A stretch of 64,000 nucleotides of DNA. It comes from a virus. Made by a program: the position numbers and the translations under genes. The notes beneath the pieces were generated by a model. It was not told the DNA's origin, ran no database searches, and saw only the letters and a list, made by a program, of their open reading frames with translations. Below, piece after piece: positions 4,485 through 43,577 of this stretch. Positions within the stretch are counted from its first letter, which is position 1. Each line of letters starts with the position of its first letter. The stretch spans positions 1 through 64,000 of IMG/VR virus record IMGVR_UViG_3300002141_000156; one strand, 5' to 3'.

Positions 4485-6158
4485 TTAGTGACCAATTTTA
4501 GTGATTTGCATCTCTGAAAAGTGGTCTTGTGTTTTTACAAATATTTTAGAAGTAAAAAATTCTTCAGGTAGGGATTCATGTGATACTACAAAAATAGTCA
4601 TATTGTATTTTTGTGAGTATTCTTTAAGTATTTCAATTGCCTTATATACATTATTCTTGTCAAGAGAACTAAATATCTCATCTAGGAATAGAATATTCAT
4701 TTTGCCGTGTTTCATCTTAATAATCTCAATAAAAGCAAGTAGAACAATCAAGTTCATCTTTTTACGCTGACCGCTGGAGAGACTCTCTGGCGAAATTTCC
4801 ATTCCAAGATAAGCAATTGTTGGATTGAATTCATTATCAAATTGAAATTGAAACTTAAATTCTAGTTTTTCAGATATTTCCTGAATCCTAGAATTTAGTG
4901 TTGGAATTATCTTATCAATTAAAGTCTTCTTAATTCCAGAGTCAGATAATAATTCGTCTAAAATATTAAAAAGATTGAGTTCTTGACCTTTATTTGTTGC
5001 AGTAGCTGAATCTGTTTCAATTTCTGATTGAATTGATGAGATAATTGTTTCAATTGAACCAGTTTCATCAGATTCTAGTAAAGTCGCAGTTTTCTGTAAT
5101 TCTGTTTCAAGAACCTGAAGGTCAGCAGCAATCTTATAATACTCTGACTTTGAATTATTTTGGTCATTAATATAAGTATTTAGAGTCTCAGTCATATCAG
5201 AAAAAGATTTTCTAAGTATTGGAAGTTTCTCTTCAAGTAATTTTTTCTTAGCTGTAATAATATCCTTAGTCTTAATTGATGAATTTGTAGTTAAGTCATT
5301 TAGACAATGTGGACACCGATTCTTCTGATAAAGATCAGCTTTTTCTGCAAGATCAGTAATTGATGTTTTGATTGTACTCAGTTCATCGCGTACTCCATTT
5401 AAACTTTTTTGAAAGTCGTCAACTCTGGTCTTTAACCCAGAATATGATGATTTAATAGTGTTTAGATCTTCTTTTTTAGTTTCAATCTTGGTTCTTAAAT
5501 TATCTGATTGTGATTCTTTCTTTTTAGTTAATCGATCTTTAAGTTGTGTAAGTTGATCGATTGAAGTATTTAAAGTAAATGCGTTTTTACTGATCTGTGA
5601 ATTCAGAATCTCAAGATCCTTTTTACTCTGTTTTAGGTCCTCTTTTACAACGGCTCGCATATCAGTTAAGATATCGATTCCAAAAATTCGGTCGACTATT
5701 TTTCGCTTATCAGACTGACTTAAGTTAACAAATGATTTAAAATCATCGAATGATAAACTAATAGTATTACAAAATACCGAAAATGGTATTCTGGCAAGTT
5801 CCTCTTCAATAAATTCATCGACTTTTCTCTTATCTGGTAAATTGAATGGTGCTCCATTTATTTTAATATCACTAAAGTTTGGATCGATGCCGCGATCGAC
5901 ATCAACTGTATCTCCAGAATTAGTAATAAATTTAATATTTGTGTAGGCATTTCGATTAATCCAATTTGGAATATCTTTCATCTTACGAATCGCAGATTTT
6001 CCATAAATAGCGATCGTTAGCGCTTCTTTAATTGCCGATTTTCCAGCACCATTTTCTCCTTCGACTAGAATAAGCTGTGGCTCATCACTAAATTTAAAAG
6101 TTTGCAAAAGGTTGCCATACGACAGGATATTTTTATATGAAAATTCTAATAATTTCAT
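4485..6158 (-). CDS. recombination endonuclease ATPase subunit (T4 gp46 / Rad50-SbcC-like)
   Basis: Walker A GENGAGKS, coiled coil with CPHC zinc hook, LSSGQ signature, Walker B LFLDE, VSH. Confidence 0.93.
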   Translation of the reverse strand: MKLLEFSYKNILSYGNLLQTFKFSDEPQLILVEGENGAGKSAIKEALTIAIYGKSAIRKMKDIPNWINRNAYTNIKFITNSGDTVDVDRGIDPNFSDIKINGAPFNLPDKRKVDEFIEEELARIPFSVFCNTISLSFDDFKSFVNLSQSDKRKIVDRIFGIDILTDMRAVVKEDLKQSKKDLEILNSQISKNAFTLNTSIDQLTQLKDRLTKKKESQSDNLRTKIETKKEDLNTIKSSYSGLKTRVDDFQKSLNGVRDELSTIKTSITDLAEKADLYQKNRCPHCLNDLTTNSSIKTKDIITAKKKLLEEKLPILRKSFSDMTETLNTYINDQNNSKSEYYKIAADLQVLETELQKTATLLESDETGSIETIISSIQSEIETDSATATNKGQELNLFNILDELLSDSGIKKTLIDKIIPTLNSRIQEISEKLEFKFQFQFDNEFNPTIAYLGMEISPESLSSGQRKKMNLIVLLAFIEIIKMKHGKMNILFLDEIFSSLDKNNVYKAIEILKEYSQKYNMTIFVVSHESLPEEFFTSKIFVKTQDHFSEMQITKIGH

Positions 6159-7270
6159 TGTTCGTAACTTTTATTGTTCTTTAAATCGTCATATATTTTC
6201 TTAAAACTATCAACGACTTGTGTAGAGATATCTGGTGCATAATTTGCTTCCTTAATTTTTGCATCAAGTATTGTGAAAATATTATATTCGTAATTTGAAT
6301 CGGTTTCAATATCACTCTTACTTTGTAATTGGTCGAGAGTATATGAAAAGAATTCAAGACGCCGACAACCTGCATCTTTAATAAGTTCCGTAAATTTGGT
6401 TATTGGAAATCGTAATGAAAATGAAGATTCTATTGTAACATCAACAAAGTTATTCTTTACCAGGTCTCGTAGTTGTTGAGTATTGAAATTTAGAAGATCG
6501 GTAATATCAAACTTTAGGTGGCGAGGAGAAACCGTATTTTCAATAAATTTTTCAATAATTGTGTCTTCTGAATCTGCATAAAGTACATAGAAACCCTTGG
6601 TGTTACCTCTATCGCCTCTATCCATTTCATAAGGTGTTCCTACATAAAGAACATTGTTTTTATCTTGGCGAATATGTATGTGTCCTGAATAGACGCGCTT
6701 AAATGACTTTAAATCATCACTATCTAGTCCATGAGTAAGTTTTGTTGCTCTATTCAAAGAAAATCCCTGAACATCAGCATGGCAGAAAATATAGTCGGCC
6801 GCTGAATTAACGCGAACCGCCTCTTTCAATTCAGCAACGTTTTCTATCCAAGGAAGAATTAAAAATTTATGAGAATTAATTTGAAGTATTTCAGGAGTCT
6901 CAAAGATATGAAAGTTTGGGTACATTATATCATAACCCTTTAGAGAGTGAACATCGATTCGATCTTTATAATAGACATCATGGTTTCCCAAAAAGAAATA
7001 GACACCCCGCTTAAATTTTTGACAGAGTTGTCGAGCGATTTCTTGAGAAATATCTTGAATTCGAACATTTGTTGATTCCCGAACATGATTCCAATCACCA
7101 GTCTGAACTAGGATATCTCGGTCTGGGTCAAATCCTTCTTCATCAACCCTCTTTAAGAAAAAATCAAGAAGAAAGTCGGTCTGAATATCAGACCATTCGA
7201 CAGAGTTGTTTCGTACGCCTAGATGCAGATCGCCAAGAACAAATATCTTACGTATATTTTCTAATATCAT
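6155..7270 (-). CDS. recombination endonuclease nuclease subunit (T4 gp47 / Mre11-SbcD-like)
   Basis: GDLHLG, GD, GNHD and SGHIH phosphoesterase motifs; adjacent to gp46. Confidence 0.93.
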   Translation of the reverse strand: MILENIRKIFVLGDLHLGVRNNSVEWSDIQTDFLLDFFLKRVDEEGFDPDRDILVQTGDWNHVRESTNVRIQDISQEIARQLCQKFKRGVYFFLGNHDVYYKDRIDVHSLKGYDIMYPNFHIFETPEILQINSHKFLILPWIENVAELKEAVRVNSAADYIFCHADVQGFSLNRATKLTHGLDSDDLKSFKRVYSGHIHIRQDKNNVLYVGTPYEMDRGDRGNTKGFYVLYADSEDTIIEKFIENTVSPRHLKFDITDLLNFNTQQLRDLVKNNFVDVTIESSFSLRFPITKFTELIKDAGCRRLEFFSYTLDQLQSKSDIETDSNYEYNIFTILDAKIKEANYAPDISTQVVDSFKKIYDDLKNNKSYEQ

Positions 7271-8121: not shown

Positions 8122-9603
8122 TTATAGTGAATTAAAGAGAGCATCATATTCATCTTCAATCACCGGCTTTGCAGAAATTGCATCTTCTGACTTGATTTCT
8201 GAGTATTCATTACGTAATTGGTCTTCTAATTTATTTGCTTCATCATCATCACTATAGAATTCACTATTCATTCCAGACTCTTCGGATAATCTAAAATAGT
8301 CTTTGACCATTGTGTAAAATTTATAGCTTTCTTCATATCCATTATCACGATTTGCAATTGCTTTAATTTTCATTCGACTTTCTAATGGGCTTCGCATTAA
8401 TCCAAATAAGGAATCAACCGTATGAATAAGACCAAATGATTCAGCAACGGATTCCATTCCCAAGTCAAAGTTACCAACATCTTCACGTTTTACTTGAGTC
8501 GCACTAATAATACACCATTCATTTCTCATTGCAACTCCACGAAGTTCTTCAGAAATTGCTTTGATTTTTTCATATAGACCATTTTGATCTTTAAGTGGTC
8601 GCATCAAATTAAGATAATCAACAACAATCACTCTAAACTTTTTATTATGTCTGTTTTCAAGACGTAGAAAATGGTTTTCTATATCAATTGCAGTTGCACC
8701 GCCAGTCGAAAATTCCATTAAGTGAAGATCTCCCTTTAGCTGACCCGAGTCACGCATTGCAATTATTTTATCTTGAACAAGTTTTGCGGCAGCAGCATCT
8801 GTAATTCCAGCGTAATCATCAGATCGAATATTTAAGATATTTGAACCTATGCGTTTCATATATGATCTAGCAGAAAGCTCAACTGTTACTAATCCAGTAG
8901 TATTTCCAATCTGAAACGATCGGGCGGCAATATTTCCAAGAACCATTGATTTACCAACCTTTGGTCGACCTTGAAAAACAACCAGTGTTTTTGGATTCCA
9001 GCCGCCACCTAATACTTTATCAAAAAACTGAAATCCAGTCGGACTGCCGTTTTTAGGTAATTGTACATGGGCTAAATGGTCAAAGAAATTTAAGCCAGTA
9101 TCTCCGCTTGAAAAATTAACAGCAAGTTTACTGCTAATATCGTTTCTTACTTTCTCAGAAATCTTATCAATATTTTCAGGATCAATTGATGTAGTCTTTA
9201 AGTAAGTGAGAAGATCAAATACAGTAAGATTAAGATTTCTAAGTAATATGAAAGATCTGACATATTTGTAAAGATAGTCATAATTATATTCGCGTAAATT
9301 AAACGCATAAAGTTCATCAAATTCTTCATCTTCAATTGAGGTGTGTGTTAATTCTAAATAACTTTTTAATTCTTTACGATTTGGTATTTTTTCATATTCT
9401 CTAAAAAATTTAAGAGCAAGTTTAAATGATTCATTTCGAGCATCTTCATTGAAGTAGCTTGGTCGAACCATTACAATTAATTCTTCTCGACGTAGTGAAT
9501 CATGATTCTTTGGTTTTGATTCATTACTTTCGTTGTCTTCATTTAGAATGAAGTTCCACACCATTTTTTCGAGTGAATCAATATTTTCGGTAAAATCAAT
9601 CAT
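8122..9603 (-). CDS. replicative DNA helicase (T4 gp41 / DnaB-like)
   Basis: Walker A GRPKVGKS, IVVDYLNLM, ISATQ and AESFGL motifs. Confidence 0.93.
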   Translation of the reverse strand: MIDFTENIDSLEKMVWNFILNEDNESNESKPKNHDSLRREELIVMVRPSYFNEDARNESFKLALKFFREYEKIPNRKELKSYLELTHTSIEDEEFDELYAFNLREYNYDYLYKYVRSFILLRNLNLTVFDLLTYLKTTSIDPENIDKISEKVRNDISSKLAVNFSSGDTGLNFFDHLAHVQLPKNGSPTGFQFFDKVLGGGWNPKTLVVFQGRPKVGKSMVLGNIAARSFQIGNTTGLVTVELSARSYMKRIGSNILNIRSDDYAGITDAAAAKLVQDKIIAMRDSGQLKGDLHLMEFSTGGATAIDIENHFLRLENRHNKKFRVIVVDYLNLMRPLKDQNGLYEKIKAISEELRGVAMRNEWCIISATQVKREDVGNFDLGMESVAESFGLIHTVDSLFGLMRSPLESRMKIKAIANRDNGYEESYKFYTMVKDYFRLSEESGMNSEFYSDDDEANKLEDQLRNEYSEIKSEDAISAKPVIEDEYDALFNSL

Positions 9604-9929
9604 TGTATTATATAAAAGTGAGTTAGTCCATTTTGTGTAATATACATAGTTTCACCATCCACCCTAAGATTTTCCGATAAAATTAAGCTCTTTATTCTTT
9701 TAACTAGATTTTGCTTAAAGGTTTCATCATTTAGCCTATCACCAAACACATATTTTAATGATTTTGACGAAAACTTTAGATTTTCAATAGTTAACTGCTT
9801 TTGTTTTATCTCAATAACCTTAATTATGTATTGGATTATGTCAAAGAGGATTGCAAGATCATCTTGTAAAACATCATCGGCATGAACATTAAGATAATAC
9901 TTTATTGGAAGATCAGAGCGCAGTTTCAT
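9600..9929 (-). CDS. hypothetical protein
   Basis: 109-aa ORF overlapping the recombinase C-half and the helicase. Confidence 0.65.
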   Translation of the reverse strand: MKLRSDLPIKYYLNVHADDVLQDDLAILFDIIQYIIKVIEIKQKQLTIENLKFSSKSLKYVFGDRLNDETFKQNLVKRIKSLILSENLRVDGETMYITQNGLTHFYIIQ

Positions 9930-10608
9930 CGTCTTTTAAATTTTCAAGTTCATCATTTTCTAATTCGTCAATTCCATCTTGCGTCTCTGGAAATTTAAAA
10001 GTAGGCTTGATAATATTCTCATCAAGGTCATGTAATACAGTATCTGTGAATAATTTAGCAGAGAAAAAATCTCTAACCGGAACCTCATCACCATTATGAC
10101 GAATGATATAATTTTTTGCCTGTATGCTAGGCTTTACATACCAAACTTCTCCGCTTACTTCAAATTTATGGCATTTTGTTTGGTCTTCTGGCTTAAGCTT
10201 TGAAAATTCCTTTTCAGTTAATTTAGAACCACGAACAACTCCGCAATTTTCCCAATTAACGAATTGTTCAAGACCAACATATGGATTCATGCCTTTATGG
10301 AAAGAAATATGGAATTCAATATCTAGTGGTTTAGCTAATCGGTTCTTTCTAGTCTTAGAACGAACAATAATTCCAGTAGTAGTTTTAGCCTCATCGCGTA
10401 GTGTACCTTTACTTAGCATTAAGATAATTGATGCTGAGAATTCAGGACCTCCACCACCAGACATACCTTTTGGAGTATATTGATCCATTGAATTATGGGA
10501 GACAACGGTGTTTGATAGAATGTAGTGGTGGACATCCTTAACTTGTATATCATATACTTTTTCAGAATTGTCAATGGTTTTAACTGATTTAATTTTTATT
10601 TTATTCAT
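9913..10608 (-). CDS. uvsX: split-intein C fragment fused to the C-terminal half of UvsX/RecA recombinase
   Basis: Start reassigned to ATG 10608. MNKIKIKSVK...VYDIQV...YILSNTVVSHN is followed by SMDQYTPKGMSGGGGPEFSASIILML...KNRLAKP (RecA L2 loop and downstream strands). Confidence 0.9.
   Translation of the reverse strand: MNKIKIKSVKTIDNSEKVYDIQVKDVHHYILSNTVVSHNSMDQYTPKGMSGGGGPEFSASIILMLSKGTLRDEAKTTTGIIVRSKTRKNRLAKPLDIEFHISFHKGMNPYVGLEQFVNWENCGVVRGSKLTEKEFSKLKPEDQTKCHKFEVSGEVWYVKPSIQAKNYIIRHNGDEVPVRDFFSAKLFTDTVLHDLDENIIKPTFKFPETQDGIDELENDELENLKDDETAL
10492..10608 (-). mobile_element. split intein C-fragment (39 aa)
   Basis: Block F VYDIQV, block G VVSHN, +1 Ser nucleophile, Lys-rich N-terminus. 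Confidence 0.92.
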
Positions 10609-11653
10609 AGCGTTTAAATAATATAGTATTTTTTTGTATATCAACTATTGCATAAATGAAGTTGATTCCTTTTTCTTTTACTGACTTTCTCTTATTTGGA
10701 TCAGCAAACTTATAAGTATAACTTGACTTAACTTCAATTACTAAATTTTTGGACTCAATATAGAAATCTGGTATGTATCTATGTTGCTTGCCGGTTTGAA
10801 TATATGTACAACCTATTTTTTGATACGATGCATACCCTATAGTTATTTCAGATTCATTAAACTTAGTTAATAAGTAATCGAGAAAAGTTGGTTCATAGCC
10901 TAATAAGTTAACTATTTTGCCACTAGGTAATATATATTTTTTGTACTTAAATTGTAGATGATATTCATTGAAAAACTTTTCTAAAAATTCATCATTTTGC
11001 ATGTGACTCGACACACCATATTTCTTAAGACATGTTTCTTTTATTTTATCTTTAGTTGCTTGTGTATGCATCACATTGTCAACACCATACTTTTCCAAGC
11101 AAGTCTGCTTACGTGCTTCTAGAGCTTGTTTAGAGCGTGCTTTATTTCCTTTTGAAACTTTTTCCTTAATTAATGAATTTTTATTCGGATTGTCATATCC
11201 GTAATTTAAAATGAAAGTTTCTATAACTTTTTTCCTACCTTCAATTGAATGAAGATTTGAAATATGTCCACCTCTCTCTAAATTTGTAGCTTCACGCTTT
11301 CTACGAATTTCAAGTTTCTCATCGTCCGTCCTTTTAGAAAAAGCTTTGACTAAAGAGGCTGACCTCTTTGCTTGCACTTCAGTTAATCCATTATTGAAAT
11401 CAGCTGCACATTTTTTGTTACAGAATTCAATTCGAATTTTTGGCAACGGTGTTCCACATTGCTTGCACTTAATTTGTTCAATCAATCTAGTTCGAATGTG
11501 AAACAATCGGAATGGAACATCTGAGCTTTCTGGAAGAAATGAAGTTTGTGAAATTATAAAATCATAGAATTCACGGTCCTTTCTAATTGCTTTGGATAAA
11601 GAAGCTAACGCTAAATTTGATGCTGCCATAATTCTTTGTAAAAAATCGTGCAT
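10601..11653 (-). CDS. free-standing putative homing endonuclease (PD-(D/E)XK type)
   Basis: CKQC/CNKKC Zn motif, repeated (K/E)TxLxKYGV-like helices, C-terminal YIPDFY...VIEVKS; lies between the two intein halves. Confidence 0.82.
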   Translation of the reverse strand: MHDFLQRIMAASNLALASLSKAIRKDREFYDFIISQTSFLPESSDVPFRLFHIRTRLIEQIKCKQCGTPLPKIRIEFCNKKCAADFNNGLTEVQAKRSASLVKAFSKRTDDEKLEIRRKREATNLERGGHISNLHSIEGRKKVIETFILNYGYDNPNKNSLIKEKVSKGNKARSKQALEARKQTCLEKYGVDNVMHTQATKDKIKETCLKKYGVSSHMQNDEFLEKFFNEYHLQFKYKKYILPSGKIVNLLGYEPTFLDYLLTKFNESEITIGYASYQKIGCTYIQTGKQHRYIPDFYIESKNLVIEVKSSYTYKFADPNKRKSVKEKGINFIYAIVDIQKNTILFKRYE

Positions 11654-11665
11654 GTCCTTTTATTT

Positions 11666-11674
11666 TTATTTATC
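11666..11674 (-). promoter_or_regulatory. putative late promoter GATAAATAA for the endonuclease
   Basis: Located in the 40-bp gap between the intein-N stop and the endonuclease ATG; identical to the motif upstream of the sheath gene. Confidence 0.55.
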
Positions 11675-11693
11675 ATAGATACGCAAGCATTTT

Positions 11694-12590
11694 TTATTTA
11701 CATATAATTTCAGATCCTTCGACTAAGTCAATTGCTTCGATCCAATGCTCTTCATTTGACCAATCATCTCCAACTAAGAACTTATGATTTGGCGTGCATT
11801 TAATAATCGTATCATCTTCTAATACGATTTCGATTAATTTTGCACAATCGTATTGAAATATGTTTTCAATCGGTTTTAATCCATCTAACGTTTCAACAAA
11901 TTGCCCCACCTCAACCTCAGAAATTTTAAGTTCACCATGATCTGTTAGAATCTTATGATCTCCTAAAATGCAGGCGTAAGTATGATTCGTGAAAATAAAT
12001 GGAACTTTAAGATTTGAAAGCTCAAGAGTAAAAGATTTGAATAGAGACCTCATCTCTTTAGAACGAAGACCCATATCTGCTGCATTTTTACCAGCATCCA
12101 TATCGCGTTTGCTCTTATCAGTATCTAACATACCTACTGAGTCGACAAATATTGCTGGTTTCAAACCTGGATTTTCTCGCATGGTTTCAATAAAGTCATT
12201 GATGAAAAATTTAACATCACTGATTAAACCCATACGTAAATATTTTAATCTGGCAAGATCTACTCCAAATTTTGTGTAGTCTGAACTATCAATTGCACCT
12301 TCGGTGTCAATATAGAAGACCATATAGTCTTTCTTTTGTAATTCACGAACTGCATTTAAACATAAGAAGGTTTTACCAGAGCCCGAGTCTCCAGCAATAC
12401 CAATACTTCGAGTATTTGGATAACCTCCGAAAACTGATCCGGACATTTGTGCATTTAATAGGTAGTTGCCGGTTGGGATATAATCATCGATATCTGAGAA
12501 TCCCATTAGTGTAATTTTGGTTTTTACTTTCTTTTCAAGCAAATCATTGAATTTGTTGAATGCTGAAAGTGCATCTTTTGCGCTTGCCAT
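11694..12590 (-). CDS. uvsX: N-terminal half of UvsX/RecA recombinase fused to split-intein N fragment
   Basis: PTGNYLLN..SGSVFGG, Walker A GDSGSGKT, YIDTEGA, Walker B IFVDSVG, MGLRSK, then FTNHTYA joined to intein start CILGD. Confidence 0.92.
   Translation of the reverse strand: MASAKDALSAFNKFNDLLEKKVKTKITLMGFSDIDDYIPTGNYLLNAQMSGSVFGGYPNTRSIGIAGDSGSGKTFLCLNAVRELQKKDYMVFYIDTEGAIDSSDYTKFGVDLARLKYLRMGLISDVKFFINDFIETMRENPGLKPAIFVDSVGMLDTDKSKRDMDAGKNAADMGLRSKEMRSLFKSFTLELSNLKVPFIFTNHTYACILGDHKILTDHGELKISEVEVGQFVETLDGLKPIENIFQYDCAKLIEIVLEDDTIIKCTPNHKFLVGDDWSNEEHWIEAIDLVEGSEIICK
11697..11972 (-). mobile_element. split intein N-fragment (92 aa)
   Basis: Block A CILGDHKILT, block B IKCTPNHKFL, WIEAIDLVEG; 21 D/E versus 7 K; ends in TAA. 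Confidence 0.92.
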
Positions 12591-12610
12591 AGACAGTATT
12601 TTTATTAATC

Positions 12611-12637
12611 TTCTACTTTATGATGAAGCAAAAGTTC
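12611..12637 (-). promoter_or_regulatory. putative early/middle promoter GAAC-N17-GTAGAA
   Basis: Matches a recurring bipartite motif; upstream of uvsX-N. Confidence 0.45.
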
Positions 12638-13204
12638 TTATTCTGAAAAATAAGAAAGTAATAATAGTGAACAGGAAAGTGCAATAGAATCTGATACTTC
12701 GCCTTTTAATAAGCGATTGAATCTCACCTTTTCAATTGATTGGATATTTGCGTTTGGATTGAAACCGGCTACTGAGAAGCCAGATGGATCTTTCATATAG
12801 TTACTTAAATTAATTCCATAACATCGATATTCCTTAGAAAAAGGAACGCCGTGCTTTACTTTACCTAAAAAGTAAATGTCATTAATATCAGTATCAGAAA
12901 GTCCAAGTTCATTATGAGCACAGTCTTCGACTGCATTATAATATGAATCAAATTTATTTTTATCAAATGTATCTGTGATGCAGGTAAAATCAACGCCGCC
13001 GAGTAAGTGGTCTTTGTATTTTGCAAGATAGATATTTTTGACTTGATCGTGTTCGTTTAAATCAAATGGAAGAATACAGATAGACTCCTCAGAACAGGCA
13101 AGTCTTCTAAATTTTCCACCATTACTAGAAAAAGAATACATCGAATATTTACCATCCGTGTATTCTTGCTTCTTGTCAAAACTTGTATTATCTTCGTGAT
13201 TCAT
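12638..13204 (-). CDS. Nudix-fold protein with degenerate Nudix box
   Basis: SICILPF...IYL followed by TDTFD...AVEDCAHNELGL, where the box is normally GxxxxxExxxxxxxREUxEExGU. Confidence 0.5.
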   Translation of the reverse strand: MNHEDNTSFDKKQEYTDGKYSMYSFSSNGGKFRRLACSEESICILPFDLNEHDQVKNIYLAKYKDHLLGGVDFTCITDTFDKNKFDSYYNAVEDCAHNELGLSDTDINDIYFLGKVKHGVPFSKEYRCYGINLSNYMKDPSGFSVAGFNPNANIQSIEKVRFNRLLKGEVSDSIALSCSLLLLSYFSE

Positions 13205-13841
13205 CTACTTCGGTTAAATTTATTGTAGGTTTATTCTCTCGCTTAATAATTACTGGCGGGGCTAGTACTGAGTGCATAGAGTCTTTAACTACTTGTTTAT
13301 TTATCATCCCATGCAAGTATTCGGCAAGTTCAGATAAAAACTTATCTTTATCTTCCGCACTTGTATACATCAACTTAAGTAGCTTTCTATCTGGCAACTT
13401 AACTGTTAAGTTGACAGATATTTGTGACTCTTCAGAATTAAACATAGCAAACATATTTGGTTTTGGAGTAGTTTGCTGTTCGATTACAGGTTGTTGCATT
13501 TGAGGTTGATTAAAAGTAGGGCCTGCACTGACTACTGGCTGCTGCACAGTATGTTGCGCAGTCGGCTGTGCAGGCTTTTGTATCTTTGCTCCACTAATTG
13601 ATTCAACTTCTGAACGACTTAATGGTTCCATGTCACCATGTAACATCAGTAAGTCCGAATTTAATCGAGAACTATCGATTTTTGAACCATCATCAAATGT
13701 TACCATGAAGCGAGCGCCAAACGGTTGAACATCTCGACATTTTACACATTTTCCCAAAAGTTCAGGGCGGTCAGTTTTTATCCATTGGAATTTCTGACCT
13801 GTAAAATTCTCCTTTAATGAAATTAATTTTTCAGTGTCCAT
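13188..13841 (-). CDS. hypothetical protein with Gln/Pro-rich linker
   Basis: Start reassigned to MDTEK (13841) to remove the overlap with 13864-14115. Confidence 0.7.
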   Translation of the reverse strand: MDTEKLISLKENFTGQKFQWIKTDRPELLGKCVKCRDVQPFGARFMVTFDDGSKIDSSRLNSDLLMLHGDMEPLSRSEVESISGAKIQKPAQPTAQHTVQQPVVSAGPTFNQPQMQQPVIEQQTTPKPNMFAMFNSEESQISVNLTVKLPDRKLLKLMYTSAEDKDKFLSELAEYLHGMINKQVVKDSMHSVLAPPVIIKRENKPTINLTEVDESRR

Positions 13842-14414: not shown

Positions 14415-15839
14415 CTATAGTGAATTTTTTAGTTTTTTTATTTGACCTTGAGTACCAATACGTTCATTGTATAATCGGGTCAAGATTGTTCGAGCCGCAG
14501 AATCATTATCTGATGAAAATAGAGTATCGTTCTTGGTATGTATTTCACCACCTTTTAGTCGAACCTGATCACGCTTACCTAAGTAAGTATCTGGTGAAAT
14601 ATTAAACTGAATTTGAATATTTGGGTACATTGATGAAAAATCATAACATGCAATAGCATTATAGTGACCTGGAGTTGGTTTTTTAACATATGCTCCTTCA
14701 TATGTTGCAGTATTATCCTTTTGTTCTCCCCATGGAAGTTTCATCATTTTAAGATTCTTATTTAAGAACTCACGACACATTAGGATTTCAGCAACATACA
14801 CTGGACTAAATACTTTATTTACTTCGACTTGTGCAACGTTTGCAATTGAATATGCAACATCTAATAGCGAAAGCTTATCTTCAATTAACTTAACTAGAAC
14901 AACATCCACTACGTTATAGAGAGTAAATAAATATGTGTCTTTTTGGAATGCCAAGAATGATGGATAATCATGCTTGAGTTTATTTGCACCAAGCACAATA
15001 CCTGCAATATAATCCAATTTGTAATTTTCAACAACTTTATATGGTTTAAGTTTTTCAAACACTTGCATATAATCTAGAACTCCAAGGTGAGCAGGTATCT
15101 TATTTTTAGAAATAAGGGTACGAGACGGAAGATTAAGAGTAGTATCAATCTTCATGTTCTTACCGCGATTCATCAAATACTTCCAGTCAAAGTCAGTTAC
15201 ATTCCACCCAGTAACAAAAGATAGCTTCGGTACAATTTGATGGAAATAAAAGTTTAGAAGCTCAGTTTCAGTTTGGAAGAATTTATATTTGATTTTAAAA
15301 TCTTGCTGAAATAGAGCAGCATCTTGTGGGCGCAGTGGCTTTATTTTTCTAAAATAATCATTTACGTCTTTTTCCATACGTATTATATCATCAGCTGAAA
15401 GTCCAGCAGGATCGTCATCGTTATGTAAAATGGAAAGAATATATGTTACGTTATCTTCGTTACAGAATGAAATTAGTCCAACTGGCATTCTTGCACGTTC
15501 AGGATCAGGAAATGAATCATCAATTAATTTAATCTCAATATCAAGATATGTCTTCTTTGGAAAGTTGTCAAAATTATAGACAATTTCAAGTTCTTCAGCA
15601 GAAAGTTTCTCTTGCACTAATTCCTGAATTCGAAACTGAGTCATATATCTACCCTCAGTTGGACTCTTCTTCACATATTTGCCATCCCAATTTTTGGTGG
15701 CAGTTTTTGTTTTAGATTCAACCCAATTAAAGAGTTCATGATCGACTAATCTCTTTCTAATGAATTCGATTTTTCCTGCTTGATTATAGTAGGAAATAGC
15801 TAAGGTATTATCAGTAAGTACTTCTGCTCCAATTATCAT
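14415..15839 (-). CDS. family B DNA polymerase, N-terminal subunit (gp43A-like: exonuclease plus motif A)
   Basis: ExoI YLDIEI, ExoII GWNVTDFDWKYL, ExoIII YNVVDV, YEGAYVK, motif A YDFSSMYPNI; stops before motif B. Confidence 0.88.
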   Translation of the reverse strand: MIIGAEVLTDNTLAISYYNQAGKIEFIRKRLVDHELFNWVESKTKTATKNWDGKYVKKSPTEGRYMTQFRIQELVQEKLSAEELEIVYNFDNFPKKTYLDIEIKLIDDSFPDPERARMPVGLISFCNEDNVTYILSILHNDDDPAGLSADDIIRMEKDVNDYFRKIKPLRPQDAALFQQDFKIKYKFFQTETELLNFYFHQIVPKLSFVTGWNVTDFDWKYLMNRGKNMKIDTTLNLPSRTLISKNKIPAHLGVLDYMQVFEKLKPYKVVENYKLDYIAGIVLGANKLKHDYPSFLAFQKDTYLFTLYNVVDVVLVKLIEDKLSLLDVAYSIANVAQVEVNKVFSPVYVAEILMCREFLNKNLKMMKLPWGEQKDNTATYEGAYVKKPTPGHYNAIACYDFSSMYPNIQIQFNISPDTYLGKRDQVRLKGGEIHTKNDTLFSSDNDSAARTILTRLYNERIGTQGQIKKLKNSL

Positions 15840-30703: not shown

Positions 30704-33111
<2,408 letters not shown>

Positions 33112-42429: not shown

Positions 42430-42672
42430 TTAGTCTTGTTTAAATGTTTGATTGTAATAATCTTCTGGTGTTTCATTAAACCGTGATATATCTCCTTTTA
42501 TAAAAGCATCTTCAATTTGTTGCTTCTCCATTGCTTTGGCTTGGTGGAATATATTTTTTTCTCCAAATAGTTTGTCTTGTGCTCCTTTCATAGCGTACGC
42601 TCCATCTTCTTCAAAGTAAGACATTATCTGAGTTATCTCTTTTTCTAAAAATTCTACTGATGTTTTTTTCAT
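42430..42672 (-). CDS. MKQTAVEWL-family small protein
   Basis: MKKTSVEFL, FHQAKAMEKQQI, YYNQTFKQD. Confidence 0.75.
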   Translation of the reverse strand: MKKTSVEFLEKEITQIMSYFEEDGAYAMKGAQDKLFGEKNIFHQAKAMEKQQIEDAFIKGDISRFNETPEDYYNQTFKQD

Positions 42673-43577
42673 TAGGTTTGTGTGTTTAGTTTAATATAGT
42701 GAAACAGTGCAAGATCTTTAGCTTTTGCCTCGATTTCGCAATCAAATTCAAATCCATAATCTGGAATAGTCTCATATATATAATCAGCATGAGAACGATT
42801 AATAACTGATGCATCCTCGTGAACCGCTTTTGAACTTGAGAAATGATGTAACGGAGTATGCCCATGCCAAGTAGTAGCCGCAAGTTTTGCAGCAGCCTCA
42901 CCAGATAAGTCATTTGTACAAAAAGTATGATGAAAATGGTCAAATGTAATTGGGCACCCAACTTTCATATAAATTCCGTGATATAGATCAACAACACCAT
43001 ATTGGCTTGCCTTATCATCATTTTCAACAACAAGTCGAGCACGAGTAGTGGGGGTAAGTTTTGTAAAATTATCGCAGAATCGTGCAAGTGCCGAGTGTTT
43101 ATCGCCATATGAACCGCCAACATGAATATTAATTGGAAAACTAGGATCTGCAGGAAGTCCCATAAGATCCATGATACGGGAATGCTGATCGAGATCATAA
43201 ATAGTTTTAGTAACAATAGATTCAGTTGGGGAAGCAAGTACATCAAATTGTCCAGGATGAAATGAAAGACGCATTCCATGAAATTTGACAAATGTGCCGA
43301 TTTGGGTAAGAGCCTCACGAAGTGTGCTAAAATTAGGAAGATCCTCAAATCGATATTCGCTCATCCATGGAAATATATCACTTGACATGCGATAGACTTG
43401 AATATTATTTGCTAGATTCCACTCTAGGATTTTACATAAGTCACGAATATTGGATTCAGCTAATTCGGCTGCTCGAGGAAGACCATGTTCTAACCATGTC
43501 TTTTTTATCATACCGCGATTAGTGGTGATAGCTTGATCTTTTAAAGTAAGATTAATGCAACAGTATCCGAGTCTCAT
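42672..43577 (-). CDS. uvsE: UV-damage endonuclease
   Basis: MRLGYCCIN, RMSSDIFP, RLSFHPGQF, NIHVGG, LVVENDD, FDHFHH, HAD, EAKAK. Confidence 0.93.
   Translation of the reverse strand: MRLGYCCINLTLKDQAITTNRGMIKKTWLEHGLPRAAELAESNIRDLCKILEWNLANNIQVYRMSSDIFPWMSEYRFEDLPNFSTLREALTQIGTFVKFHGMRLSFHPGQFDVLASPTESIVTKTIYDLDQHSRIMDLMGLPADPSFPINIHVGGSYGDKHSALARFCDNFTKLTPTTRARLVVENDDKASQYGVVDLYHGIYMKVGCPITFDHFHHTFCTNDLSGEAAAKLAATTWHGHTPLHHFSSSKAVHEDASVINRSHADYIYETIPDYGFEFDCEIEAKAKDLALFHYIKLNTQT

Follow-up and report, generated by a model that had tools for sequence, protein, structure and literature searches.

Fractured genes with split inteins were described in 2009 by Dassa et al. (Dassa, London, Stoddard, Schueler-Furman & Pietrokovski), whose examples include gp41-1, gp41-8, NrdJ-1, NrdA-2, IMPDH-1 and others (PMC2677866). 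According to that report, their loci share a layout on a single strand, in which the N-terminal part of a host gene is fused to an N-terminal intein part (IntN) and is followed by a short spacer, a free-standing nuclease gene and then a C-terminal intein part (IntC) fused to the rest of the host gene (PMC2677866). Here we describe the same layout in the gene for the recombinase UvsX in a 64,000-nucleotide (nt) stretch of DNA of a freshwater phage ("the window" below means this whole stretch), which is the first 64 kb of the 131,120-nt metagenomic virus record IMGVR_UViG_3300002141_000156 from IMG/VR (estimated completeness ~51%). From its sequence we consider it highly likely that the window carries a fractured uvsX with a canonical split intein, i.e. 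a mini-intein broken by a nuclease gene, in which trans-splicing would restore UvsX and the nuclease would home; the uvsX split intein itself is very probably real and functional. UvsX, at the start of its single-stranded DNA (ssDNA)-binding loop L2, would in this way join the hosts of canonical split inteins in the fractured-gene layout.

In the list of open reading frames (ORFs) of the window, the locus is made up of three minus-strand ORFs that lie head to tail, the N-half of uvsX with IntN, the nuclease gene, and IntC with the C-half. Their parts are as follows (lengths in amino acids, aa; the host portions are called exteins).

12590-11694, minus strand: ORF of 298 aa for the UvsX N-half (206 aa) and IntN (92 aa), reading ...FTNHTYA, then CILGDH...EIICK and a stop.
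11973..12590, minus strand: uvsX N-extein, 206 aa, with Walker A motif GDSGSGKT and C-terminal ...FTNHTYA at the L2 start.
11694..11972, minus strand: IntN, 92 aa, with Cys1, block B C-T-P-N-H at intein residues 59-63, and its stop codon at 11694-11696.
11654..11693, minus strand: non-coding spacer of 40 nt from the IntN stop to the nuclease ATG, containing GATAAATA and AAGGA.
11653-10601 (10601..11653), minus strand: free-standing nuclease gene, 350 aa, between the two uvsX ORFs; a presumed homing endonuclease with a predicted C-terminal restriction-endonuclease-fold domain.
10608-9913, minus strand: ORF of 231 aa from its ATG for IntC (39 aa) and the Ser+1/UvsX C-half (192 aa), reading MNKIKIKSVK...VVSHN, then SMDQYTPKGMSGGGG.
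10492..10608, minus strand: IntC, 39 aa, with block F VYDIQV..HHY and block G SHN.
9913..10491, minus strand: uvsX C-extein, 192 aa and a stop, whose first residue is Ser+1 (SMDQYTPKGMSGGGG...).

Because a free-standing nuclease gene fills the gap between the halves, the window locus is a textbook fractured gene of the kind described by Dassa et al.; the initial annotation of this DNA had correctly placed the two ORFs apart but had passed over the 350-aa nuclease gene (11653-10601) that lies between them. The dimensions also agree with those given in the 2009 report: the spacer is 40 nt long (27-51 nt there), the 3' end of the nuclease gene overlaps the IntC ATG at 10608 by 8 nt (6-69 there), and IntN and IntC are 92 and 39 aa (88-105 and 33-54 aa there) (PMC2677866). 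The window and the earlier loci are alike in their phage origin and in having an enzyme of DNA metabolism as host, and a nuclease-free variant occurs in both sets (loci L004 and L088 here, gp41-7 there) (PMC2677866). On the other hand, uvsX is outside the eight host enzymes of that report, where it is just a neighbour of gp41 loci, and the window nuclease has a classic D...ExK motif and TnsA, not Vsr, as its best fold match (PMC2677866). A hairpin upstream of the endonuclease in 15 of 16 loci and the sequence TATAAATA in 10 loci are frequent but not defining features there, and the window differs from many of those loci in both, since a hairpin is unsupported and the exact TATAAATA is not in its spacer (PMC2677866). 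Judged by its sequence, then, the locus appears to be a new host site and a distinct intein lineage within a known kind of fractured gene, whose layout has been known since 2009.

The host protein was identified from several directions. Residues 36-203 of the N ORF match Pfam RecA (2.4e-13), the N ORF matches PHROG 97 'UvsX-like recombinase' (1.8e-40), and the C ORF matches the recombinase families PHROG 18112 and 97; an unbroken, intein-free allele (protein cluster P0024) matches the Protein Data Bank (PDB) entries 9gbg 'Phage Recombinase UvsX' (7.9e-39) and T4 UvsX 3io5 (2.7e-20). On these matches, and with the helicase and SbcC/SbcD-like genes nearby, the protein is assigned to the UvsX/RecA family, whose marks are a RecA core with Walker A and loops L1 and L2 and a phage replication-recombination gene context. 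When aligned to E. coli RecA, ...FTNHTYA/SMD.. (the slash marks the junction) falls opposite ...FINQIRM/KIG.., which we take to place the insertion point at the first residues of RecA loop L2, just past the conserved Gln194 position. Loop L2 of RecA binds ssDNA.

The intein halves were recognised by Pfam Intein_splicing, which matches residues 234-295 of the N ORF (8.2e-6, 26.1 bits) and residues 16-51 of the C ORF (3.3e-5, 24.2 bits). Together with the ORF list and the RecA and PHROG 97 matches, this bears out the claim of the initial annotation that uvsX is encoded as two ORFs with a split intein, as well as its part lengths of 206, 92, 39 and 192 aa (N-extein, IntN, IntC and C-extein); the intein profile, a check that it had proposed, matched both halves at scores below the family's gathering score (discussed below). 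Cys1 (C207), G219, C265-T266-x-N268-H269, F271-L272, W283, E285 and A286 are invariant in 18 of 18 aligned N ORFs, as are D20, H27-H28-Y29, S37-H38-N39 and Ser+1 (S40) in 10 of 10 C ORFs. All 10 aligned C ORFs begin at the Met equivalent to 10608; an alternative TTG start at 10644 would make the window's C ORF 12 residues longer. With a Cys nucleophile at residue 1, a T-x-x-H block B, blocks F and G, the terminal His-Asn and a +1 Ser, the element is a predicted class 1 intein. The solved chain nearest to IntN is the gp41-1 intein (PDB 6qaz, E 0.002, block B aligned), and that nearest to IntC is the Pyrococcus horikoshii RadA intein (PDB 4e2u, E 0.01, blocks F and G aligned); since both likenesses are marginal, we place the window intein in a distinct lineage of ordinary HINT inteins.

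Alleles that are free of the element show where it begins and ends. The insert is 1481 nt long (window 10492-11972) and lies in frame in uvsX between Ala206 and Ser207 (numbering of the unbroken protein). Over 8190 nt, IMG/VR locus L009 and the window share 99.7% identity, but L009 lacks exactly these 1481 nt, and its exteins have 100% amino-acid identity to those of the window. The 398-aa intein-free protein P0024 reads ...FTNHTYASMDQYTPKGMSGGGG..., the N-extein being joined directly to the C-extein, and one residue differs from the window exteins in the part inspected. The predicted splice junction NHTYA/SMDQ is the exact sequence of both of these unbroken natural alleles. In this comparison the element boundaries are exact and the predicted spliced product is the natural intein-free allele, and this, with the RecA alignment at the L2 start, agrees with the collinearity of splicing with L2 that the initial annotation had proposed. 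Contigs from two further freshwater runs (X5 and X7, studies P2 and P3) also carry the empty allele, with 10492 joined to 11980 and six other letters between.

The window and L009 differ by 24 mismatches, 14 of them upstream of the element, and four of these are clustered at its edge as a feature in its own right.

11973..12000, minus strand: synonymous-difference tract, with differences from L009 at 11973, 11976, 11979 and 12000.

These four synonymous differences lie 1, 4, 7 and 28 nt 5' of the junction; the next upstream mismatch is 876 nt away and the nearest downstream mismatch is 414 nt from the junction (binomial probability of at least 4 of 24 mismatches in 28 of 8190 nt, 1.4e-6). Within the flanking tract, ACTTACGCC is common to the window and the intein-bearing locus L004. 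We read the tract as either a short co-conversion tract or changes in the nuclease target site, left by what may have been a recent homing event; precise loss of the element in the L009 lineage, instead of recent gain in that of the window, may also account for the difference between the two genomes.

The arrangement is not peculiar to one assembly. A protein search found 438 relatives, and among the best 120 of these there are, besides the window's own, at least 17 clusters with the N-extein plus IntN form (291-299 aa, 70-96% identity), most of the remaining relatives among those listed being unbroken UvsX of about 395-401 aa. From 258 relatives in IMG/VR, 80 loci were kept, of which five have an IntN while the exteins abut in the other 75; L005, L007 and L008 have both the nuclease gene and IntC, L004 has IntC without a nuclease gene, and L006 is cut off. 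Intein parts are also found in 6 of 34 metagenome loci (L088-L091, L094 and L117), 26 others being empty at the site and 2 not covering it. Logan contigs (assembled contigs, not raw reads) were compared with window positions 9400-13100, and a single 19,547-nt contig from a freshwater sediment run (X1, study P1) spans this whole region with 60 substitutions and zero indels; the stop codon at 11694-11696 is unaffected among the 40 differences listed for this contig (there are 27 further differences).

Selection on the element was estimated from ratios of nonsynonymous to synonymous substitution (dN/dS) against L091, the closest intein-bearing relative (89-95% nucleotide identity by part). The ratios are 0.083 for IntN, 0.14 for IntC and 0.16 for the nuclease, and 0.013 and 0.039 for the exteins, with zero stops; in more distant comparisons synonymous sites are saturated, and the direction agrees. 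By this measure both the intein and the nuclease are under purifying selection, and none of the complete alleles inspected has a stop or frameshift.

The two intein parts are also predicted to assemble into one HINT fold. A complex prediction with N ORF residues 202-298 and C ORF residues 1-46, both partners being supplied as alignments, gave a score of 0.73, where the best of 3 controls gave 0.01. Of 157 solved complexes 116 come up to that mark, as do 2 of 215 mismatched pairs; contact agreement between runs was at least 96% and the partner's predicted local distance difference test score (pLDDT) at least 77. Because split-intein complexes have been solved and are in the PDB, this result may reflect likeness to known inteins, and the model is to be read as a sign of such likeness, not of binding. 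IntN is strongly acidic (net -14, from 9 D, 12 E, 7 K and 0 R) and the IntC start, MNKIKIKSVK, is Lys-rich.

The product of the nuclease gene matches Pfam DUF7487 (5.9e-39), more weakly a TnsA-like endonuclease N domain (1e-4), and PHROG families labelled homing endonuclease; its family is large (12,374 representatives at E<=1e-3). In a 50-row alignment its N-terminus has a CxxC...CxxxC cluster and tandem K-x-K-x-T-x-L-x-K-Y-G-V helical repeats, and its C-terminal block has the motif D296...E307-x-K309, in which D296 and K309 are invariant and E307 nearly so. An AlphaFold2 model built from this alignment has a pLDDT of 94.4 (a single-sequence run, at pLDDT 42, was unusable), and residues 233-350 of the model were compared with known nucleases by VIA-align, which gave TnsA (Z 8.7, root-mean-square deviation (rmsd) 3.4, 119 residues aligned), Vsr 1cw0 (Z 6.5, rmsd 2.4, 86 aligned) and I-Bth0305I 3r3p (Z 5.6, rmsd 3.4, 80 aligned). 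A Foldseek search of the model against the PDB gave nothing at E<=1e-3, its top rows being cap-snatching endonucleases with rmsd above 13, and the nuclease sequence had zero matches in the PDB at E<=10. On the model, residues 233-350 have a restriction-endonuclease-like fold; this placement and the conserved D...ExK motif together suggest a nuclease of the PD-(D/E)xK type that has a DNA-binding array at its N-terminus and is presumed to be a homing endonuclease.

From these observations we infer trans-splicing, nuclease activity and homing, as follows. The element would be a class-1-type mini-intein, and a free-standing nuclease gene would interrupt its coding sequence at the loop into which endonucleases are usually inserted. 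The phage would make UvsX(1-206)-IntN and IntC-UvsX(207-398) separately, and translation of the latter may be coupled to that of the nuclease ORF through the 8-nt start overlap. IntN, being acidic, would pair with the Lys-rich start of IntC to form the HINT fold, after which a thioester at Cys1, attack by Ser+1, cyclisation of IntC Asn39 and an O-to-N shift would yield native 398-aa UvsX. The nuclease would cut intein-free uvsX alleles in mixed infections, and recombinational repair would copy the whole element and a few flanking bases into the cut alleles; the presence/absence polymorphism between 99.7%-identical genomes and the 28-nt synonymous cluster at the site both point indirectly to homing of this sort. 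If the locus works in this way, the recombinase would exist only after trans-splicing, and the intein pair could be orthogonal to others, both of which the initial annotation had proposed.

Several observations weigh against this scheme. Both Intein_splicing matches, at 26.1 and 24.2 bits, are under the family's gathering score of 35.8 bits, as is expected because each ORF holds half a domain. The charge complementarity that the initial annotation described stands for IntN (21 D/E against 7 K) and for the Lys-rich start of IntC, but IntC as a whole has a net charge of only +2, and the complementarity is therefore one-sided. The fold matches of the nuclease are middling (best Z 8.7). A Shine-Dalgarno sequence is not evident ahead of the IntC ATG in the sequence inspected. 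A hairpin in the spacer, as the 5' untranslated region of the nuclease gene, is unsupported (minimum free energy -6.9 kcal/mol, z -0.21; the fold is equalled or bettered by 79 of 200 shuffles). Nor does the locus, spacer included, have an exact copy of the T4 late-promoter octamer TATAAATA; the spacer has GATAAATA instead. Finally, contigs from an RNA run (X15) lie on extein parts only (9907-10445 and 12132-12863; 95-100% identity) and bridge no junction; being off both the element and its junctions, they are silent on which allele is expressed.

Could the element instead be dead or decaying, the nuclease insertion having inactivated uvsX, with the halves left unspliced or inefficiently spliced while the phage uses the host RecA or another recombinase? 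The absence of a clear ribosome-binding site before IntC fits this idea, and because the record is only ~51% complete, another recombinase could sit in the missing half. We nevertheless find it quite improbable, given that the splicing residues are invariant in 18 IntN and 10 IntC sequences, that dN/dS is 0.08-0.16 for the intein and nuclease and 0.013-0.039 for the exteins of intein-bearing alleles, and that the complete alleles inspected have zero stops or frameshifts. The halves might also act as a non-covalent two-piece recombinase, held together by the intein parts or by the extein fold without a peptide bond. Intein-free fractured genes of this sort are known, an SbcD-like locus and the nrdA gene of phage Aeh1, split by mobE, being cited in the 2009 report (PMC2677866). 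For mere association, however, an intact intein would be unnecessary, as would selection on all its catalytic residues, and a 131-aa HINT domain kept in loop L2 would probably block filament function, so we give a two-piece enzyme a very small chance.

An assembly artefact (a chimeric contig) or an intron removed at the RNA level is the least credible explanation, and we regard it as close to negligible. It is true that the window is a metagenome-assembled record and that all runs compared with it were contigs, but the same arrangement recurs in at least 17 further protein clusters and in five and six loci of two collections, and the differently assembled X1 contig has 60 substitutions and zero indels. 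Moreover, the insert lies in frame and its product has conserved intein blocks, and an Rfam search of 9400-13100 at E<=1 gave three weak matches to unrelated families and no intron.

UvsX is interrupted by related elements in cultured phages and other GenBank records. Tblastn against GenBank phages found uvsX in pieces in coliphage HY03 (NC_031047), Pseudomonas phage PspYZU05 (NC_055720), about a dozen further enterobacterial T4-like phages and nine Lak-B megaphage records; HY03, PspYZU05 and Lak-B5 were inspected (the last read with TAG=Q). HY03, PspYZU05 and Lak-B (MK250024) have the same host gene, the same loop and the same three-gene layout as the window, and the annotation of the first two has a 'homing endonuclease' between a 'DNA repair protein' and a 'recombinase', followed by gp40 and gp41, with the intein unnamed. 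Their break (...TGG/TG... in HY03 and PspYZU05, ...AMG/SG... in Lak-B) is 13 residues downstream of the window's ...HTYA/SM..., which makes two intein sites in loop L2. The +1 residue is Thr in HY03 and PspYZU05 and Ser in Lak-B and the window, and IntN in these phages is about 96 aa long against 92 aa in the window. IntC of HY03 is identical to that of the window at 20 of 36 positions (56%) and IntN at 26%, with the same termini; by this alignment the HY03 and window inteins are homologous over their full length. The annotated homing endonucleases of HY03 (L001:3926-4648) and PspYZU05 (L003:4013-4864) have no tblastn match to the window nuclease at E<=1e-3, and the nuclease genes accompanying these related inteins thus have no detectable mutual similarity. 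In the Lak-like clusters P0133 and P0134, an IntC at the window's site (..SHN/SMSF..) stands at the protein start, and their UvsX C-piece carries a contiguous mini-intein of about 130 aa 13 residues on, at the HY03/Lak-B site.

TAG recoding has been reported for Lak phages, and the Lak-B5 frame fits it. In Lak-B5 (a Prevotella phage, L002) the IntC and UvsX C-half ORF at 6200-7032 is open only if TAG is read as a residue; it contains four TAG codons, one of them within IntC.

The description of uvsX as an uncommon host gene in the initial annotation was overstated, since the uvsX genes of HY03, PspYZU05 and Lak-B in GenBank already contain a related split intein together with a gene annotated as a homing endonuclease, and RecA and RadA are common intein hosts, for which a published compilation tabulates 56 and 9 inteins (PMC4760082). 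A full-text literature search, which did not cover reports naming the VidaL hosts, gave no description of a uvsX split intein. In the intein-engineering literature, metagenomic UvsX genes are named as hosts of the atypically split VidaL inteins, whose IntN is very short. The VidaL IntN is 16 aa long (PMC13014065), whereas the window intein is canonically split into 92 and 39 aa. The Pho (P. horikoshii) RadA intein is contiguous, unlike that of the window. Its insertion site is presumably elsewhere in the recombinase. The mycobacterial RecA inteins (RecA-a and RecA-b sites) have a RecA-family host like the window, but they are contiguous and have LAGLIDADG domains; one mycobacterial RecA intein site is near L2. 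The M. tuberculosis RecA intein is a LAGLIDADG homing endonuclease, according to the title of a reference cited in PMC4760082.

At the window's own site a range of states is present. The site is empty in L009 and many others, split with a nuclease gene in the window, L005, L007, L008, L089 and L091, and split without a nuclease gene in L004 and L088, where 17 nt separate stop from ATG and the junction is the same. A contiguous form, IntN-LNLNG-IntC, is present in P0138 (535 aa), a single protein record. These states are the series proposed by the gene-breaking model that is named in the outline of the 2009 report (PMC2677866). The 99.7%-identical intein-free genome, the nuclease-free variant and the one contiguous mini-intein record make unusually good natural controls for split-intein origin, and the compact Cys1/Ser+1 pair (92 and 39 aa), with its native junction residues known, is a candidate split intein for protein ligation.

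One further locus, L117:48-2293, is a 2.3-kb low-coverage contig in which an unrelated 604-aa ORF precedes IntC and the UvsX C-half, replacing the nuclease gene and the N-half; its likeness to the window begins just 31 nt upstream of the IntC ATG. Either the assembly is chimeric or the uvsX halves have become separated in this genome.

A broader reading, which we think doubtful and offer tentatively, would join these observations as a self-provisioning homing module in UvsX, with one intein lineage at two L2 sites and all the split-intein stages (an empty site, a contiguous intein and a split one with or without the nuclease gene) in one freshwater population. Homing depends on UvsX (PMC2988022), and because the start of the C-half overlaps the nuclease ORF, active UvsX would on this reading be assembled in step with nuclease production. 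If it were true, the origin of split inteins would be directly testable.

Downstream of uvsX in the window are a 109-aa ORF and then a DnaB-like helicase at 8122-9603, which matches the uvsX-gp40-gp41 order of T4-like phages; SbcC/SbcD-like genes lie at 4485-7270, and a PolB fragment, a dUTPase, a chaperonin and a UvdE-family UV endonuclease are encoded elsewhere in the window. Megablast of 9600-12700 against the phage collection gave zero matches. Scans of 9500-13300 found 13 sigma-70-type promoter-like sites (18.2 expected) and 1 terminator-like site (1.7 expected), nothing usable in either case. Across window positions 1-64000 the TATAAATA octamer occurs 4 times against 11.15 expected, and 100 of 100 shuffles had at least 4; the phage gives no sign of TATAAATA late-promoter use.

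Three of the other genes deserve mention. The family-B DNA polymerase ORF at 14415-15839 (minus strand, 474 aa) includes the exonuclease domain but, of the 453 positions of the polymerase domain, only 21-136; it stops about 65 residues past its YDFSSMYPN motif, with no intein signs at its end; the 131-kb record has no second DNA_pol_B match. It may be a split gp43 with its second part encoded at another place or in the half of the genome that the record lacks. A GroEL-type chaperonin is encoded at 30704-32350 (minus strand; Cpn60_TCP1, 7.7e-66), and an Intein_splicing match within it at 30833-31222 (E 0.0099) was judged to be due to chance because the ORF has normal GroEL length. The UvdE-family UV endonuclease gene is at 42672-43577 (minus strand; 2.3e-54).

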